A DNA stretch of 64,000 nt from an uncultured Methanobrevibacter sp. (GTDB lineage: Archaea; Methanobacteriota; Methanobacteria; Methanobacteriales; Methanobacteriaceae). The notes beneath the pieces were generated by a model. The model worked only from the letters and a program-made list of their open reading frames with translations. It did no database searches and had not been told where the DNA came from. Positions 1-8,273 of this stretch are shown in pieces. A program made the position numbers and the translations under genes. The DNA lies in contig NZ_CACYJE010000006.1 of NCBI RefSeq assembly GCF_902774605.1, positions 3,818-67,817 of the forward strand. The letters run 5' to 3'. Numbering within the stretch: the first letter of the stretch is position 1; each line of letters starts with the position of its first letter.

Positions 1-326
1 ATTGTTATTTGATTTGAAATCTGAAAAATATTTTTACACCAATCTTTCTCGTTTAAAAACTTAATATAAAATGGATTGTCTTTTCTATCAATGAAAAAGT
101 GATCTCTTAATTTTTTTGCTTTATCAAAAATGGAACCTTGGTCTAAGAATAATAAAATCTTGTTAAATTCTTCATCTGTTAACTCACATTTATTTAATCG
201 TTCCAATTGAATTTTAAAATTAGCAATTAACTCGTCTTCATTTTTAATTTTAATTCTTTCATATCCATTATTTGATAATCTTTTAATCAAATTCTCTTCT
301 AAAACTGCTTCACTTTGAGTTGACAT
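1..326 (-). CDS. hsdR: Type I restriction-modification R subunit (HsdR), N-terminal part; runs off the left edge
   Basis: Manual translation from ATG at 326: MSTQSEAVLEENLIKRLSNNGYERIKIKNEDELIANFKIQLERLNKCELTDEEFNKILLFLDQGSIFDKAKKLRDHFFIDRKDNPFYIKFLNEKDWCKNIFQISNQIT. Resembles the HSDR_N start (SE..LE..LI..L...GY; IF.KAK.LRD; W.KN.FQ..NQ). GGTAAT SD-like sequence upstream. Not in ORF track. Confidence 0.8.
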   Translation of the reverse strand, partial: MSTQSEAVLEENLIKRLSNNGYERIKIKNEDELIANFKIQLERLNKCELTDEEFNKILLFLDQGSIFDKAKKLRDHFFIDRKDNPFYIKFLNEKDWCKNIFQISNQIT

Positions 327-583: not shown

Positions 584-2506
584 TTACTTAATTTTAATGC
601 TTGATTTTTTCGAAACATCATAATTCTTGCTTTTAGATGTGATCTCCACCTTATGGTTTCCACGTTTCAGCTTCTTAGTGTTCAGCTTGGCGACACCCTT
701 CTTGTCAGTTTTGAGAACGTAAACCTTATACTTCTTGCCGGTGAAGACCTTGACCTTGATTTTGAGCTTAGGAACGATTTTTCCTGAGGCCTTGTTCTTG
801 ACTGTTATCTTGAAGTATTTTGATTTTTTGTACTTTGCAGTCATCTTCTTGGCCTTGACGGTTGTCTTTGCCTTCTTGACTGTCAGGGTGAATGTCTTTT
901 TGGGGAAGGTGGAGTATTTGCTGTTGGGCATTATGACAATCTTGTGCTTTCCGACGGACAAGTCGGAGGTTATCCTGAAGTATGCCTCGGCGCGATTCTC
1001 ATTGTCCGCATTGTAGTAGTAGAGCTTGTATTTCTTTCCTGTGTAGACCTTGAATATTGCCTTAACATGACCCACTGCCCCGTATCCGTCTTCTGTCTTC
1101 TCGCTTATGGTCACCTCGAACCTTTTGCGTGAATCATAGGTTGTGGTGGTGAAGCTGGCATACATTGCCTTGAATGTGAACTTATCGCTCTTCGGCGCTT
1201 GATGGGTTGAGTTAGTTGACTTGAAGTTGGATGCCATGAGATAGATCTGTGAGCCCTTGGAGTCCTTTCTGGTGGTTATGCTAGTGTTTTCGAGGTTGAT
1301 GTTGGTGCATGTGGCATATATTGCGCCTCCCTCGACTGTTGCAACGGAATCAGTGATTGTTGAGTTGACGATGGTGAGGTACTTGTCGATTTTCTCGCCG
1401 CAGCCCACGTACTCGTAATTGTAGATGACGCTTCCCTTCTGGGCAGTGTTTCCTGTGAAGTTTGAGTTTGCAATTGTTGCCTTGCCCAGCGTGTTGAATA
1501 CCGCACCGTTCTTGGCCTGATTGCCTGTAAAGACTGAATTGTTGATGTTGACCTCAGAGTGTGAATCGATTATGCTTTCCTTGTTGGATGCGAATGTGCA
1601 ACCGTCGATGTTGAGGCGAACCGCCCACATCATGAGGAATGTGGTGTGGGTGGAGCCTGTGAATTGCGAGTTGATTACATCAAGCACAGTATTTTCGGTT
1701 ATCTTCCCATCAGGGTTTCCGAAAAATGAGATTTCCCCGTAATTGTTGGCGAACCTGGAATCCCTTATGATGGAATGCTTTTCAGTGTATAGCACAGGCA
1801 CGGTATTGTCCTTGAATGTGCAGTTGTCAAAGCTTGACATTGTATTGTCCAGGTGGATGAGGTCTGCTGGAGATGCCATCTTGGCGTAGTCGAGCTTGTG
1901 GCTTGAAAAGACAGTGTTTTTCGCATCCAATTGACCGTCCTCCACACCTACTGCAAGTGCAATGTTTGCGTTGGTGTTTGAGGTGAATGTTGAGTTGACC
2001 AAGCTCAATTTACCGCCCTGTGCATAGATTCCAGCGTAGTCTGTGTCCGCATCGTAGAGGTATTCGTAAGGGATGTAGGTGAGCTTGCCGCCTCCGTTGG
2101 TGAATGTGCAGTTCACTATTAGAAGTTCAGTGTTCTTTGAAAAGAGCGCAACCCCTTTCGCGTTGGCAAAGTTTATGTCCTTCAGGGTCAATTTCTTGGA
2201 GGTGACCTCCATGATCGAGGATTTCTTTGCGGCGTCGAGCCTTGCGCCTTTTCCATCGATTGTTATTGACTTTGAAACCTTGATCGGTGAGCCGGAGCCT
2301 GTGTAGGTTATCCTGTCAAGTTCCACGGTGTCCCCGTCGTTGGATGAGGAGACCGTCTTTTGAATGTCTGCAAACGTGTTTCCTGAAACGGCAGTATCCA
2401 AGGCATCGCCCTCGCCGGCCATCGTGAGGTTGTCCTCGGCGGACACTGCCCCCACGGCGATGATGAGCAGGATTGCGGATAATGCCATTAATGCTTTGAG
2501 TCTCAT
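584..2506 (-). CDS. Adhesin-like surface protein (signal peptide, beta-helix/pectin-lyase-like repeats, Lys-rich Ig-like C-terminal domains)
   Basis: Likely start MRLKALMALSAILLIIAVGAVSA at 2506 (signal peptide). FxxN-x-A-xxGG-type repeats; C-terminal VFTGKKYK..KT.KKGVA module. Confidence 0.8.
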   Translation of the reverse strand: MRLKALMALSAILLIIAVGAVSAEDNLTMAGEGDALDTAVSGNTFADIQKTVSSSNDGDTVELDRITYTGSGSPIKVSKSITIDGKGARLDAAKKSSIMEVTSKKLTLKDINFANAKGVALFSKNTELLIVNCTFTNGGGKLTYIPYEYLYDADTDYAGIYAQGGKLSLVNSTFTSNTNANIALAVGVEDGQLDAKNTVFSSHKLDYAKMASPADLIHLDNTMSSFDNCTFKDNTVPVLYTEKHSIIRDSRFANNYGEISFFGNPDGKITENTVLDVINSQFTGSTHTTFLMMWAVRLNIDGCTFASNKESIIDSHSEVNINNSVFTGNQAKNGAVFNTLGKATIANSNFTGNTAQKGSVIYNYEYVGCGEKIDKYLTIVNSTITDSVATVEGGAIYATCTNINLENTSITTRKDSKGSQIYLMASNFKSTNSTHQAPKSDKFTFKAMYASFTTTTYDSRKRFEVTISEKTEDGYGAVGHVKAIFKVYTGKKYKLYYYNADNENRAEAYFRITSDLSVGKHKIVIMPNSKYSTFPKKTFTLTVKKAKTTVKAKKMTAKYKKSKYFKITVKNKASGKIVPKLKIKVKVFTGKKYKVYVLKTDKKGVAKLNTKKLKRGNHKVEITSKSKNYDVSKKSSIKIK

Positions 2507-2628: not shown

Positions 2629-4416
2629 CTAATTTAGGCAATTGTTAACCCAATTGATGAAATTGGTGGTTGAATCACCTGTTCTTTCGGCTTGAGTGTG
2701 ACCCTGTCCCCATACAGTGGAGAATTCCACATTATCAGAGCCGGATTTTGCCAGAACTGCAAGGTAAAGGTTCACGTCAACACATTGGGAAGTGTCCCCC
2801 TGTTCGATGCCGGTGTTTATCCTCCAATATTTTGCCACATCAGAGCTTCCTGCTCCGTCATAGTAATCGCAGAGGTAGTACATTGGATTGTACATGTTAA
2901 CACGAGTTTCCATCGTATTGTTCTCGGAATCTCTTTTAGCCAGGTCTGCACTGTACTGGGTTGCGTACTCATTGGAGTAGTCACTGTATCGTGAGTACTC
3001 ATCAGAGTTGTTTGCAAGCAGACTGCTGACGGTCTTGTCGAAGTGTGCTGAACCGTTGGCGTCAAGGCCTAATAGTCCGTTTTCTGCCTGTGAACGATTC
3101 AGGTCATCGAATGCTGGAACTGATTTGGATGGGCTTTTGCAATGCTTTACAAATGCCTCGAAAGATGTGATTTTAGCAGTGTTTGTGCTTGCATCATACT
3201 TGATCCATGTTTCATTGCCGTTAAGTGAGTCAACGTAATCCTGTGCGGTTTCATAGCTTTCAGAATCATCTGATGAATCTGTTGACATGTCAGCGGTAGG
3301 TGCTTCACCTGATGGTGCTTCTCCACCCATGTCGCCTGAAGGTGCTTCACCTGAAGGCATGCCTCCCATTGCCCCCATGCTTGATGGAGTGTATGGGAAT
3401 GTGGTGTCGTTTAGGAAATTGTTCAATGACTCTTCTGTGACGCTTAACAAGTAGTCATAGTAGCTTCCAGCGGCATATGTTCCTTTTTCGCTTTGCTCAA
3501 GTGTCAAAGTATTGCCGTTTGGATCCTTAAGTCCCAATTCATTTATATAACTCGCGTATTCGCCTGCAAGGTCATTGCTCAATTCACCTGTGAATGAATT
3601 GTTGCTCCTGGCGTATTGGCCCATGTTCCACTCATAGGCGGCATCCGCAGTGTCGAGGCTGGTTATAGGGCACCAGCACATTGCACCTGCGATGGCATTG
3701 GACAGGCCGTTTCCGTTCTTGTCGACCATTGCTGCCTGGATGCTTTCAAGGTATGGATTGTAGAGTTCACTGTTTCCGCTCGCCCCCATTATTGCGGATT
3801 GCGCTCCGCCTCCACTGTGGCCGAATGTGAATATCTTTTCAGCGTTTCCCGGCAGGACATCGCCGTTGAATCGGTAGTATGTGACTGCTGCCTTGAGGTC
3901 TGTGACTCCATCAGGGGCTTCGGCATTGTCTCTTCCACGGCATCCTGCATTCAGGTATATGAATCCTGCGTCAGTGTAGGATTTGACCTCATTGGCATTG
4001 TATGCTGTCGGCGCTGTGCATGATGAGTATCCTGGAGTGTTTACAGGCATCACGATCGGCGCTTCGGATGCAGTGTAGTTTCCAACCTTGGCGTCGCTTT
4101 TAAGTTTGCATGTGTATGTTCCGTTTGCGTTTTTTGTTGCCTCGAAGTATTTTCCAGGCACGTAGATTCCACAGGACTCATAGGCCGTGTCTTCTGGGTT
4201 CATGCAGTATACGAGTCCTATCTGATAGTATATGTCGTTTGTTTCATCATAACTCCAGTTGCTCATGTCAATAGCCAGTTTTTCATTTAATAATGTTGCA
4301 TTATATGATGGGCCGTCGCCTGATGAATGGTTACTGTTTCCCAAGAGGGCGAAGGCACCAGCAATGGCTATTATTATGATTGCAATGATTATGATGATTT
4401 TATACATGTTTTTCAT
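2629..4416 (-). CDS. Subtype B tannase-like alpha/beta hydrolase, N-terminal membrane anchor
   Basis: GHSGGGAQS nucleophile elbow, MPVNTPGY, AGCRGRD, WCPITSLDTADAAYEW, WRINTGIEQGDTS, STVWGQGHTQAER. These motifs resemble TanA-type tannases; hydrophobic N-terminus. Confidence 0.75.
   Translation of the reverse strand: MKNMYKIIIIIAIIIIAIAGAFALLGNSNHSSGDGPSYNATLLNEKLAIDMSNWSYDETNDIYYQIGLVYCMNPEDTAYESCGIYVPGKYFEATKNANGTYTCKLKSDAKVGNYTASEAPIVMPVNTPGYSSCTAPTAYNANEVKSYTDAGFIYLNAGCRGRDNAEAPDGVTDLKAAVTYYRFNGDVLPGNAEKIFTFGHSGGGAQSAIMGASGNSELYNPYLESIQAAMVDKNGNGLSNAIAGAMCWCPITSLDTADAAYEWNMGQYARSNNSFTGELSNDLAGEYASYINELGLKDPNGNTLTLEQSEKGTYAAGSYYDYLLSVTEESLNNFLNDTTFPYTPSSMGAMGGMPSGEAPSGDMGGEAPSGEAPTADMSTDSSDDSESYETAQDYVDSLNGNETWIKYDASTNTAKITSFEAFVKHCKSPSKSVPAFDDLNRSQAENGLLGLDANGSAHFDKTVSSLLANNSDEYSRYSDYSNEYATQYSADLAKRDSENNTMETRVNMYNPMYYLCDYYDGAGSSDVAKYWRINTGIEQGDTSQCVDVNLYLAVLAKSGSDNVEFSTVWGQGHTQAERTGDSTTNFINWVNNCLN
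3298..3380 (-). repeat. In-frame low-complexity repeat (GEAPSG x3) inside the tannase-like gene
   Basis: GGTGCTTCACCTGA-like units recur; protein MGGMPSGEAPSGDMGGEAPSGEAPTAD. Confidence 0.7.
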
Positions 4417-4508
4417 GATTATTCACCATCCAATTTTTATAATCTTAACAACTCCCAAGTAATATTTAATATTTACCCCGATTCCATGAGAGGTTTTCCA
4501 GAATATGA

Positions 4509-5174
4509 ATGTATGAAAAATATTACGTATCTTTTCAGCAGAATAATTCAAAACCCAAACGCCGCAACACTACAAAAGAAAAAATCAAGACAAGCGTCCA
4601 GGCGGATGAAAAGGCCGTGAAGTACAAGAAAAGCTCATACTTTAAAATCAAGCTGCAGGACAAGAACAAGACATTGCTTAAAAACGTGAAACTGAAAGTG
4701 ACCGTCAAATCAGGAAATAAAATTAAAGTATTCAACATCAAAACGAACTCCAAGGGAATCGCCCAATTCAACACTAAAGGCTTGAAAGTCGGCAAGTATT
4801 CTGTAAACATCACTGCCGATGACGACAACTATACCGTGACCAAAACATCAAAGATTTTTGTCGGAAAACAATACTCAGTCCTTGTTCGCTTTTCAAAGAT
4901 TAAAACCCTGAAAAACAAGGATAAAATCAGACTCAAAGTCCTCTATGACAAGGATAAGGGAAAAGAGGTTACAATTGTCTTTAAAAACAAGGAGAAATAC
5001 ACTAAAATCTTAAAGGCGAAATTCATTTTCTACAAGCCATCAACAAGGAAGACCGTTTCAAAAATGGAATACAGCAAATTTAAAAACGGCAAGTGGGAAA
5101 ATCCGGATAAGGACTACACATTCAGATACCAGATATGGAAGGCAAGAGTGTATTACATATCCTATAAGGCATGA
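4509..5174 (+). CDS. Lys-rich Ig-like adhesin-type module protein, no signal peptide (possibly 5'-truncated)
   Basis: KTNSKGIAQFNTKGLKVGKYSVNIT is homologous to the C-terminal module of the 584..2506 adhesin. Confidence 0.55.
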   Translation: MYEKYYVSFQQNNSKPKRRNTTKEKIKTSVQADEKAVKYKKSSYFKIKLQDKNKTLLKNVKLKVTVKSGNKIKVFNIKTNSKGIAQFNTKGLKVGKYSVNITADDDNYTVTKTSKIFVGKQYSVLVRFSKIKTLKNKDKIRLKVLYDKDKGKEVTIVFKNKEKYTKILKAKFIFYKPSTRKTVSKMEYSKFKNGKWENPDKDYTFRYQIWKARVYYISYKA

Positions 5175-5630: not shown

Positions 5631-8273
5631 TCACTTGAAAATGCACATTGTTTCATCCTTTTTCATGTCATGATAGAATTCCGCCTTATCCTCCTTGAAG
5701 TCGATGACCTGAACCATATCATAAATTTCCTCGGCCAAATCGGGATTAATATCCCTCAGCATATTAGGATACTCATAAATCATGTCCCTGTTAAACTCTA
5801 TCTTCTTGTCGTTTTCAAACAGTGCCCCGTAATAGATTTCCGCTTCCACCAGATCCTGGAACATATGGCTTCCAAAGGACAACTCAGGCATATAGCCGAC
5901 TTCACTGTATGCCTCCTCAAGGATTGCGGTGAAATGGCTGATGTCAGCAAACACCACTGGTATGCCCAATTCCGGGGAGGAGGTTCCTATCCTACCCGGA
6001 ACAATGAGAATGGATGTCCTGCCATTGTCCCTGCAGTATGCGTTCACGTCACTGATTACCCTTGAAAGCGAGCTTTTCCCAGCATACGGGTACTCATAGT
6101 ACCTGTGAGGGTCAACATAACAGATTGTGTCAATCCGGTCTTTCCGGGACATTCCCATTGATGAGTCCTTGATGTGGAAGAACACGTTTGCATCCTCAGG
6201 CATTTCAATATCCTCATCGTTGAGGGAAACCTGAAGCGGTCGGCATTGAAGGAGGTTGATGTTGAATGAATTGTCCTCACCGACATTTACAGTGTATTCA
6301 ATGTCGACCGGGTAATCATAGGCGGTTTGAAGAGTGTTTAAAATATTCTTCATCACACCAATGAACTCCTTATTCCTCACCATGCCCTCACAGTTGACGA
6401 ACACTATCTCCCTTGACTGTCCACGGTCACGGAACATTCTTTCGGCTTCACGGTCATGCTCTATCAATACCCTTTTGGCATGCCTTGGAATCACCTCCAA
6501 TCCCTCATCGACAGGAACGTCATGAAGGGAAATGTTTTTAAGGTCAATGACATCAAGGTAATGCTGGGAATACCTATGCTTCTCCTTGATGTCCTTGGTT
6601 AACGTGACTTCGGGCTTGTCGAGATTGATTATTCTCGGATAGTCCTTCTTGGTCCGGTCCACAGCCTTGGTGCCGAGACCCATCACCAGCCTCAGCATCC
6701 CCTTGCTGTTGTCCATATCAGGCAATGGGGAGTAGGGACTGTAGGAAAATCCGACGCCAGCGGCGGTCGGGAAGAAATAATCATCACAATAGGAGCCTGA
6801 AACCCTCTGAACCAGCAATGCCATCTGCTCATCAGTATCATCCAATCCATTTATCTTACGGTACTCCAGTGCGGAAATGTTCATGGTGCTTGAATATACT
6901 ATCTTGACTGCTTCCTCAAAAGCCTCGAGGCGTTCTTCAAGGCTTCCCCTGTTTACGCAGAACACTGACTCGTACTTCCCTGCGAACGCGTTGCCGTAAC
7001 CGTCCTCAAGAAAACTGCTTGACCTTACGATGATAGGGTTTTGGCCGAAGTAATCCAGTATCTGAATGAAGCCCTTTTTAATCTCATCGGAGAAAACCCC
7101 TTCCTTCAGGGCTTTCTCCAGTTTCGCACCGTACTCATAATACCCTTCCTTGGTTCTCTGATTCACCCTCAAGTCCCAAAGGTCATTTGATACAATGTAA
7201 GTGTAAAACAGGTCAGACCCTATGTAGAATGAATCATCCGGTTCGAAAACCTCCCTGTAGATTTCTGGACTGTTCTTTTCAATGATTTTCCTTGCAAGAA
7301 GCATTCCGCAGGTCTTACCCCCGACCAGTCCGCTTCCCACGCGACGGTCATAGATTGTGAGGTAATCCTCGAAAGTGAAGTATTCCTTGATTTTGGAAAG
7401 CATGCGCTCATCCTTGGTCATCATGAGCTCGCAGATCTTATCGCACTCATCATCAATATCCTTGCCCTCAGCATACTCCCTCCTGACCTGTAGCATGTAG
7501 CGCTCCCAACTGTCGAGTGTCTGGCCGTTCTGGTAGATGTCTGAGTTTATTGTCTTGTAGTAGCGACTCAGATCCTGACCATCCTGCAGAACCTTAACAG
7601 AACCTGTGAGGATGTTGAACTTATGACCCAGAAACATTGTCTGGGAGTATCGGTTCCAAACCTTCAATGGCGAGAAGTAAATCTCCTCAGGAGAGTTTGA
7701 GTACACGTTCAGGAACAATTGCGTGGTCTCCCTGATTTTTGCTATGGCATCATAGGAGTGCCTGCCCCTTATTATCGGGAAATAGGCAATAGTGTCCAAT
7801 TGGAAGAGGAAGGGGCATGTTACCTTGAAGAAGTTGCCCATCATCAAATCAGTTGACCACACCGCCTGCAGATCGCTTAGACAGTCAAAGACATAAAACG
7901 CGTCACGACCCTCCTTTTCAATTATCCTGTGCACTTCCAGGGTGAATGTCTCGAACTGGTTGTATGGATTGACCTTATATATCTTAATCCCGTCACGCTG
8001 TATCATGCAGAACTCATTGTCCTGATTGTTTTCCTCTAGCTCGAGCAACAGATAATCCTCATCAGTCATCTCTATCAACGGTTCATGATTGGCGAACCTG
8101 ATATAGATCAGGTTCCTATTGTCCTTTTTTGCCTGCTTAACGTATGGGTCGACAAAGTAGGAGAACTCATTGAGATTAGTGACATTCCACACTACATTAT
8201 CCCCTAAACGAATATTGTCCAAAGCCGCATCAAGCCCTGGAATTCCTGATTTAGCCCTTTCAAACGCTGCCAT
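5631..8273 (-). CDS. PEP/pyruvate-binding (PPDK_N ATP-grasp) domain protein with degenerate KaiC/RecA-like N-terminus
   Basis: IIVRSSSFLEDGYGNAFAGKYES, MALLVQR, GLGTKAVD, DIEYT, LLQCRP (PPDK_N motifs). N-terminal KSGIPGLD. No C-terminal PEP-binding TIM barrel. Confidence 0.8.
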   Translation of the reverse strand: MAAFERAKSGIPGLDAALDNIRLGDNVVWNVTNLNEFSYFVDPYVKQAKKDNRNLIYIRFANHEPLIEMTDEDYLLLELEENNQDNEFCMIQRDGIKIYKVNPYNQFETFTLEVHRIIEKEGRDAFYVFDCLSDLQAVWSTDLMMGNFFKVTCPFLFQLDTIAYFPIIRGRHSYDAIAKIRETTQLFLNVYSNSPEEIYFSPLKVWNRYSQTMFLGHKFNILTGSVKVLQDGQDLSRYYKTINSDIYQNGQTLDSWERYMLQVRREYAEGKDIDDECDKICELMMTKDERMLSKIKEYFTFEDYLTIYDRRVGSGLVGGKTCGMLLARKIIEKNSPEIYREVFEPDDSFYIGSDLFYTYIVSNDLWDLRVNQRTKEGYYEYGAKLEKALKEGVFSDEIKKGFIQILDYFGQNPIIVRSSSFLEDGYGNAFAGKYESVFCVNRGSLEERLEAFEEAVKIVYSSTMNISALEYRKINGLDDTDEQMALLVQRVSGSYCDDYFFPTAAGVGFSYSPYSPLPDMDNSKGMLRLVMGLGTKAVDRTKKDYPRIINLDKPEVTLTKDIKEKHRYSQHYLDVIDLKNISLHDVPVDEGLEVIPRHAKRVLIEHDREAERMFRDRGQSREIVFVNCEGMVRNKEFIGVMKNILNTLQTAYDYPVDIEYTVNVGEDNSFNINLLQCRPLQVSLNDEDIEMPEDANVFFHIKDSSMGMSRKDRIDTICYVDPHRYYEYPYAGKSSLSRVISDVNAYCRDNGRTSILIVPGRIGTSSPELGIPVVFADISHFTAILEEAYSEVGYMPELSFGSHMFQDLVEAEIYYGALFENDKKIEFNRDMIYEYPNMLRDINPDLAEEIYDMVQVIDFKEDKAEFYHDMKKDETMCIFK

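Follow-up and report, generated by a model that had tools for sequence, protein, structure and literature searches.

The gene at positions 2629-4416 of the window (the whole 64,000-nucleotide stretch of methanogen DNA analysed here) raises the question of whether a methanogen displays a tannin-degrading esterase outside its cell, to which tannase subtype that enzyme would belong, and from where the gene was obtained. The initial annotation described a surface-anchored, horizontally acquired tannase-like esterase of subtype B. Our analysis indicates that the gene very probably encodes an exported subtype A tannase, bacterial-derived, with galloyl esters as predicted substrate. The enzyme class and its export are well supported. 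The analysis shows family membership, residue conservation, fold, phylogeny, selection and the lack of synteny directly, and we infer the substrate, the membrane topology, the physiological role and its benefit to the cell.

The gene and its features

The open reading frame is genuine: it runs intact for 595 codons on the minus strand, and its start agrees with the aligned N-termini of orthologues. The ATG is also supported as the start codon by a preceding GGTGA with a 6-nt spacer. A scan for sigma-70-type promoters and terminators returned counts close to the shuffled expectation, these bacterial models being uninformative for an archaeal host. The features discussed below are located in the window as follows.

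2629-4416, minus strand: coding sequence of the subtype A tannase, 595 amino acids (open reading frame list, NCBIfam tannase_A, Foldseek)
4423-4427, minus strand: Shine-Dalgarno-like GGTGA, 6 nt ahead of the ATG (read from the sequence; putative function)
4339-4398, minus strand: N-terminal hydrophobic segment, residues 7-26, candidate signal-anchor helix or signal-peptide h-region (hydropathy, AlphaFold2)
3805-3822, minus strand: nucleophile elbow G-H-S201-G-G-G (aligned to the GxSxG of 6yq4, 7q6y and 4j0g)
3667-3675, minus strand: W-C249-P motif, with W248 and P250 invariant and C249 at least 90% conserved in 25 sequences
3265-3381, minus strand: low-complexity insert, residues 346-384, rich in Ser, Gly, Glu, Ala, Pro and Met, with two GEAPSG copies (pLDDT about 22-25)
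3082-3126, minus strand: K431 to E445, predicted gallate-hydroxyl binders 14 residues apart, both invariant
2788-2811, minus strand: G-I-E-Q539-G-D541-T-S, with Gln at the triad-acid position and Asp541 a predicted gallate binder (alignment; both invariant)
2698-2712, minus strand: W-G-Q-G-H573, with the predicted catalytic His (aligned to the WGQGH of 6yq4; invariant)

The elements on which the initial annotation was built were all recovered, namely the GHSGGG motif (residues 199-204), the WGQGH motif (residues 569-573), the N-terminal hydrophobic segment, whose uncharged run reads IIIIIAIIIIAIAGAFALLG, and the GEAPSG repeat, present in two copies at residues 356 and 365 within the low-complexity insert. 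The observation itself is confirmed.

Family and subtype assignment

The protein scored 830 bits against the NCBIfam equivalog model tannase_A (NF041555), exceeding the cut-off of 550 by 280 bits and covering model positions 41-619. Against tannase_B (NF041556) it reached 225 bits, under the cut-off of 300. In the classification of de las Rivas 2019, which PMC11571031 and PMC8958541 summarise, subtype A tannases have about 600 residues, a signal peptide and an amide (Asn or Gln) replacing the triad Asp, whereas subtype B enzymes are 470-570 residues long, retain the triad Asp and in most cases have no signal peptide. The protein agrees with subtype A in its length of 595 residues, in Gln539 at the triad-acid position and in an N-terminal export signal, its single hydrophobic segment, which follows two Lys. 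The subtype B label was thus wrong, since the protein falls below the cut-off of that model and Gln539 leaves it with no canonical Ser-His-Asp triad. The accompanying label, "TanA-type", is correct, as TanA-type enzymes are subtype A by definition.

Pfam recognised a generic BD-FAE esterase domain at residues 117-220. The fungal tannase/feruloyl esterase family (Pfam Tannase) gave no match, and a search at E≤1 returned BD-FAE and two chance-level matches only. The best sequence matches in the PDB were the Fusobacterium nucleatum tannase 6YQ4 (2e-39), 7Q6Y (3e-30), which is deposited as an alpha/beta hydrolase and is CbTan2 of Clostridium butyricum, and the Lactobacillus plantarum tannase 4J0G (1e-27).

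Predicted fold and the low-complexity insert

An AlphaFold2 model was built from a 25-sequence alignment (mean pLDDT 74, pTM 0.77) and searched against the PDB using Foldseek. The top 14 matches are all tannases, with E-values of 1e-24 to 1e-22 and TM-scores of 0.68-0.74 on the target; the first matches to generic lipases and esterases lie at about 1e-8. No subtype A tannase structure is among the sequence and fold matches found in the PDB. The initial annotation would have been undone had the closest homologues been unrelated lipases or esterases. This is not the case, because the best matches by sequence and by fold are tannases, and its identification of a bacterial-type tannase homologue stands. 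Confidence is low in some active-site loops of the model (428-460, 539-542 and 570-580), probably due to the shallow alignment.

The insert at residues 346-384 lies in a region that varies among orthologues, which have 71-120 residues across query positions 325-410. No tandem repeat was detected at the DNA level behind the GEAPSG copies in that region. CbTan1 of C. butyricum has a large, possibly disordered cap insert, F359-Y426 (PMC8958541, PMC11571031). The insert studied here is probably the flexible "cap" insert of subtype A, with 39 low-complexity residues as against 68 residues in CbTan1, going by the published description of the latter. It would serve as a variable cap near the active site.

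A predicted dyad-like active site

Ser201, His573, Gln539, Asp541, Lys431 and Glu445 are all invariant in the 25-sequence alignment of archaeal and bacterial proteins, and the motifs that hold these six residues are near-invariant across 30 archaeal copies. The motifs picked out initially are therefore beyond chance, as their key residues are kept across archaeal and bacterial relatives. In the HMMER alignments, GIEQGDTS of the query is matched with GAADRDTS of the L. plantarum tannase and GAIDKDTS of 6yq4 from F. nucleatum; this puts Gln539 in the column of the triad acid and identifies Asp541 as the Asp that binds gallate.

The closest characterised counterpart of this arrangement is CbTan1, whose active site comprises Ser216, His611 and Gln577, with Asp579, Lys469 and Glu483 as binders (PMC8958541, PMC11571031). 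The spacings in the query are the same as in CbTan1, with 2 residues from Gln to Asp, 32 from Asp to His and 14 from Lys to Glu. The Lys/Glu pair recurs among characterised enzymes (K469/E483 in CbTan1, K365/E379 in CbTan2; PMC8958541, PMC11571031), and the 32-residue Asp-His spacing is also found in TanALb (D582/H614). The Cys of the W-C-P motif sits beneath the catalytic His in solved tannases, according to the CbTan1 papers (PMC8958541, PMC11571031).

The catalytic chemistry of the triad-acid position in subtype A is debated. The CbTan1 Q577A mutant retains 35% of activity, so that the Gln is helpful and not essential, and the authors describe the catalytic site as intermediate between a dyad and a triad (PMC8958541, PMC11571031). 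For a rumen Lachnospiraceae tannase, by contrast, the Asp located 32 residues ahead of the His has been named as the triad acid. By homology, the nucleophile would be Ser201, with His573 as general base; Gln539, in the place of Asp, would support His573 in a Ser-His dyad-like site comparable to that of CbTan1. Lys431, Glu445 and Asp541 would grip the gallate hydroxyls, and the protein would act as a tannin acyl hydrolase of the alpha/beta-hydrolase type that cuts galloyl ester bonds.

The N-terminus and export

Residues 7-26 form the sole hydropathy peak of the protein, and residues 2-25 are modelled by AlphaFold2 as one helix. An uncharged run of 18-23 residues, preceded by one to three basic residues, recurs in every archaeal copy whose N-terminus is complete (28 of 28). 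In the query, cleavage might occur at AGA|F or AFA|L. The annotated surface anchoring thus holds in part: the segment places the enzyme outside the cytoplasmic membrane, and a retained anchor or a cleaved signal peptide fits equally with what was observed.

A lipobox-like L-[ST]-[GA]-C was found in 51 of 80 bacterial relatives (the best 80 of at least 502), and the other bacterial relatives inspected have classical AxA-type signal peptides. Two archaeal loci from another genus (L005 and L021) carry a classical VSA-type signal peptide and an extra N-terminal domain, and related proteins of 793 amino acids are recorded with an Ig-like Pfam domain. Tethering to the surface is a common theme, given the lipobox of bacterial relatives and the hydrophobic helix of the archaeal copies; from these sequences, archaea and bacteria both seem to keep the tannase on the outer side of the membrane, by different devices. 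The N-terminal helix would route the protein through the Sec pathway, after which it would be either kept as a membrane anchor or cleaved. In either case the catalytic domain would act on the outside of the cytoplasmic membrane, a place in which surface and membrane proteins would otherwise be bound by hydrolysable tannins.

Distribution and probable bacterial origin

The tannase_A cut-off was passed in 42 of 301 Methanobacteriaceae genomes. Across the phylum, 46 of the 329 sampled genomes passed it, and these carriers are restricted to 4 of 30 genera, all of them Methanobacteriaceae. The gene is patchy inside the query's own genus, some genomes having two or three copies, and the copies of two relatives hold an in-frame stop. 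A scan of the genome collection for related loci, with an 8-sequence alignment as query, located relatives in at least 502 bacterial genomes. The 80 best of these all belong to Bacillota, and most are Clostridia metagenome-assembled genomes from the rumen or the gut of herbivores. The nearest named bacterial protein is an Oscillospiraceae tannase, also from a metagenome-assembled genome (56% identity).

A quick LG+G4 maximum-likelihood search on 136 sequences (589 columns) gave a tree that was rooted on long-branched representative sequences. In it, the 30 archaeal copies all group together in a single clade (SH-aLRT 99). This clade is part of a polytomy with an 86-row clade that contains Clostridia (support 99), a Levilactobacillus tannase (P0128) that branches beside it and is 51% identical to the query, and one further representative. 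The gene tree conflicts with genus codes in places. A phylogeny against bacterial TanA had been proposed initially as a check, and the single archaeal clade beside Bacillota clades supports a bacterial origin. The position of the clade next to Clostridia and Levilactobacillus, together with the presence of the gene in at least 502 bacterial genomes and in only 4 of 30 genera of the archaeal phylum, points to a bacterial, Bacillota-like origin. The topology is consistent with the gene having been acquired a single time from gut Bacillota. An ancestor of host-associated Methanobacteriaceae would have taken it up once from this source, and the gene would then have diversified, duplicated and shifted between chromosomal sites within the family.

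Composition, selection and genomic context

The GC content of the gene (46.5%) and its GC3 (48.2%) are at the 87th and 62nd percentiles of the long open reading frames of the genome. Across genomes the GC content of the tannase genes ranges from 31 to 47% and tracks that of the host. A recent transfer that is still visible in composition was rejected on these grounds; as the GC content of the gene follows its host, the transfer is old. The dN/dS ratio is 0.05-0.11 in the seven archaeal pairs with measurable dS, and about 0.09 against the nearest orthologue. The tannase is thus maintained by selection.

Adhesin-like genes surround the tannase in the window. Adjacent to the gene, the same contig carries a glnA-GOGAT-PPDK-like operon that is 80-99% identical to that of same-genus relatives, which identifies the host as a Methanobrevibacter-type methanogen. 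Within 8 kb on either side of the tannase, none of the neighbouring genes of the window recurs in any of the 8 relatives compared, including the one with the nearest orthologue (85% identical), and gene context is common only within sublineages. The DNA past the conserved operon in four relatives is without the type I restriction-modification, adhesin-like and tannase genes of the window. Vertical inheritance at one site with conserved synteny is thus unsupported. The arrangement, together with the conflicts between gene tree and genus codes, suggests that the gene was relocated or exchanged within the family.

A broader history, which we put forward tentatively as possible rather than probable, is that the gene was acquired once from gut Bacillota, refitted for the archaeal surface, duplicated and moved between chromosomal sites or between species, as a mobile, niche-selected accessory trait of host-associated Methanobacteriaceae and not an isolated peculiarity of M. 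millerae. The refit may have consisted in a transmembrane helix replacing the bacterial lipobox and, in one genus, in an Ig-like fusion. If this history is true, the presence or absence of the tannase could predict which methanogen lineages persist under feeding with hydrolysable tannins.

Alternative explanations

The substrate of the methanogen tannase is assigned by homology, and the protein might be an esterase that has the tannase fold but hydrolyses different phenolic esters of plants (such as protocatechuate, chlorogenate or feruloyl esters) or lipids, with no role in tannin detoxification. The subtype A enzyme TanA_Lp also cuts protocatechuate esters, and the substrate preferences of tannases differ widely (PMC8958541, PMC11571031); the only domain that Pfam reports, BD-FAE, is generic to esterases. 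We nevertheless consider this improbable. The residues predicted to bind gallate hydroxyls, Lys431, Glu445 and Asp541, are invariant, the equivalog model is passed by a wide margin, and in the fold search feruloyl esterase and lipase structures score about 14 orders of magnitude more poorly than tannases. A related possibility, to which we give still less weight, accepts a true tannase and assigns its benefit to the community, through the supply of gallate and glucose to H2-producing partners or the relief of tannin-inhibited fermenters. To our knowledge, methanogens are unable to use gallate or glucose themselves, and both the location of the gene among adhesin-like genes and its patchy presence in the genus, which fits a niche-dependent accessory trait, would agree with such a role. 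However, a membrane-proximal site suggests local action at the cell's own surface, and this possibility overlaps with our main explanation, from which it differs only in the beneficiary.

That the gene is a bacterial contaminant of the assembly, or a decaying relic without function, is very unlikely indeed. The genome is a 108-contig draft, the tannase is within 8.3 kb of a contig end, and the copies of two relatives have an in-frame stop, which would all fit such a reading. Yet the host-like glnA-GOGAT operon on the same contig and GC and GC3 values inside the range of the genome led us to reject contamination, and a relic is contradicted by the intact frame, the presence of all catalytic residues and the low dN/dS against the nearest orthologue. 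An exported subtype A tannase of bacterial derivation that acts on galloyl esters thus remains our preferred explanation.

Significance for methane mitigation

Tannin feed additives are under trial for lowering livestock methane. If dominant rumen methanogens bear a tannase on their surface, the action of hydrolysable tannins could be weakened and carriers of the gene favoured. Tannases cleave hydrolysable tannins only, and the enzyme would therefore have limited bearing on mitigation by condensed tannins. Condensed tannins are among those whose anti-methanogen effects Kelly et al. cite (PMC4987999).

Comparison with known systems

The presence of a tannase in Methanobrevibacter, its bacterial origin and a role in tannin tolerance are already known as a proposal published in 2016. 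Kelly et al. identified a tannase gene in each of the two genomes of M. millerae, SM9 (sm9_1028) and ZA-10, predicted a signal peptide, and found the SM9 tannase to be 50% identical to TanA_Lp (PMC4987999). They proposed that the enzyme is extracellular, was obtained from rumen bacteria by horizontal gene transfer, and confers tannin tolerance with a bearing on methane mitigation (PMC4987999); a 2023 review repeats this proposal. The M. millerae tannase and the one described here are from the same genus-level group, belong to the same family and are both predicted to be exported, but they are located at different chromosomal sites. The copy from an M. millerae record (P0011) is 79% identical to the query, whereas the putative SM9 copy (G161) is about 58.5% identical and falls in a separate archaeal subclade. 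NCBI names close homologues "subtype A tannase", a named one being at most 85% identical. We found no assay of any methanogen tannase in the literature.

Among bacterial enzymes, CbTan1 resembles the query in its length of about 600 amino acids, its export and its Ser-His-Gln site; it is biochemically characterised, whereas the query is known from its sequence. The extracellular subtype A tannases TanA_Lp (L. plantarum), TanA_Sl (Staphylococcus lugdunensis) and TanA_Sg (Streptococcus gallolyticus) are in the same NCBIfam equivalog family. They begin with bacterial signal peptides, in contrast to the hydrophobic helix (about 20 residues) of the archaeal copies, and their activity was shown experimentally, while that of the query is predicted from homology. 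The subtype B enzymes TanB_Lp (4J0C and others), F. nucleatum TanB (6YQ4) and CbTan2 (7Q6Y) share the fold, the nucleophile, the His and the gallate-binding residues with the query. Unlike it, they have a triad Asp, 470-570 amino acids, mostly no export signal and a small beta-hairpin cap.

To this prior knowledge, the present analysis adds the corrected subtype, A, with Gln at the triad position, and the measured spread of the gene over 46 of 329 genomes in four genera of one family. It further adds that the 30 archaeal copies analysed group in a single clade and evolve under purifying selection, that the tannase has no fixed chromosomal site, and that a hydrophobic helix takes the place of the bacterial lipobox.

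Genomic neighborhood of the tannase gene

The tannase gene lies between an adhesin-like gene and a short ORF, with a type I restriction-modification cluster on one side and the conserved glnA-GOGAT-PPDK-like operon on the other. The features of this region are as follows.

Contig C6:1-4143, of which window 3-326 forms the end: type I restriction-modification cluster, reaching the contig end
Window 584-2506, (-): right-handed beta-helix protein of adhesin-like type, with signal peptide MRLKALMALSAILLIIAVGAVSA
Window 4509-5174, (+): 221-aa ORF with Big_1/SpaA-like matches
Window 5631-8273, (-): 880-aa PPDK_N-domain protein, occupying one end of the glnA-GOGAT operon

The restriction-modification cluster comprises an HsdR of 908 aa and two ORFs upstream. 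This cluster, the adhesin-like gene and the tannase gene make up one block, which is missing next to the conserved operon in four relatives. The PPDK_N-domain protein shares 86-94% identity with its counterparts in four same-genus relatives; in a fifth the figure is 68%.

The adhesin-like gene is located downstream of the tannase gene on the same strand, and the two are separated by 122 nt. No terminator-like site was found in this gap, using a sigma-70-type scan that is uninformative for an archaeon. Co-transcription of the two genes is possible. On the other side of the tannase gene, the 221-aa ORF, which lacks a signal peptide, is rich in Lys, as are the repeats at the C-terminus of the adhesin-like protein. 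This ORF, placed between the tannase and PPDK-like genes, is probably the remnant of an adhesin-like gene.

The GC content of the window is 41.4%, versus 39.0% for the genome. Homologous regions in same-genus relatives (loci L111-L133) range from 30 to 43% GC despite 80-99% identity among their operon proteins, which reveals wide GC differences inside the genus.

Tannase copies in other genomes

The tannase gene is undergoing duplication and loss. Two other genomes (G263 and G309) each carry three full-length, separate copies, and a further one (G050) carries three, of which one is interrupted by a contig end. Single in-frame stops (TAA and TAG) were observed in the copies on G295:C36 and G013:C4. 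Two copies from another genus, L005 (810 aa, genome G032) and L021 (793 aa, genome G067), harbor a classical signal peptide and an additional N-terminal domain; PF16640 is recorded for related 793-aa proteins. Tannases of the L005/L021 type are fusions with adhesin-type modules.

Comparison with characterized subtype A tannases

Published accounts of subtype A tannases differ on the third catalytic residue. It is an Asp located 32 residues before the His according to PMC8715002, corresponding to D541 in the window tannase, whereas PMC8958541 and PMC11571031 assign this role to a Gln two residues before that Asp, the counterpart of which is Q539.
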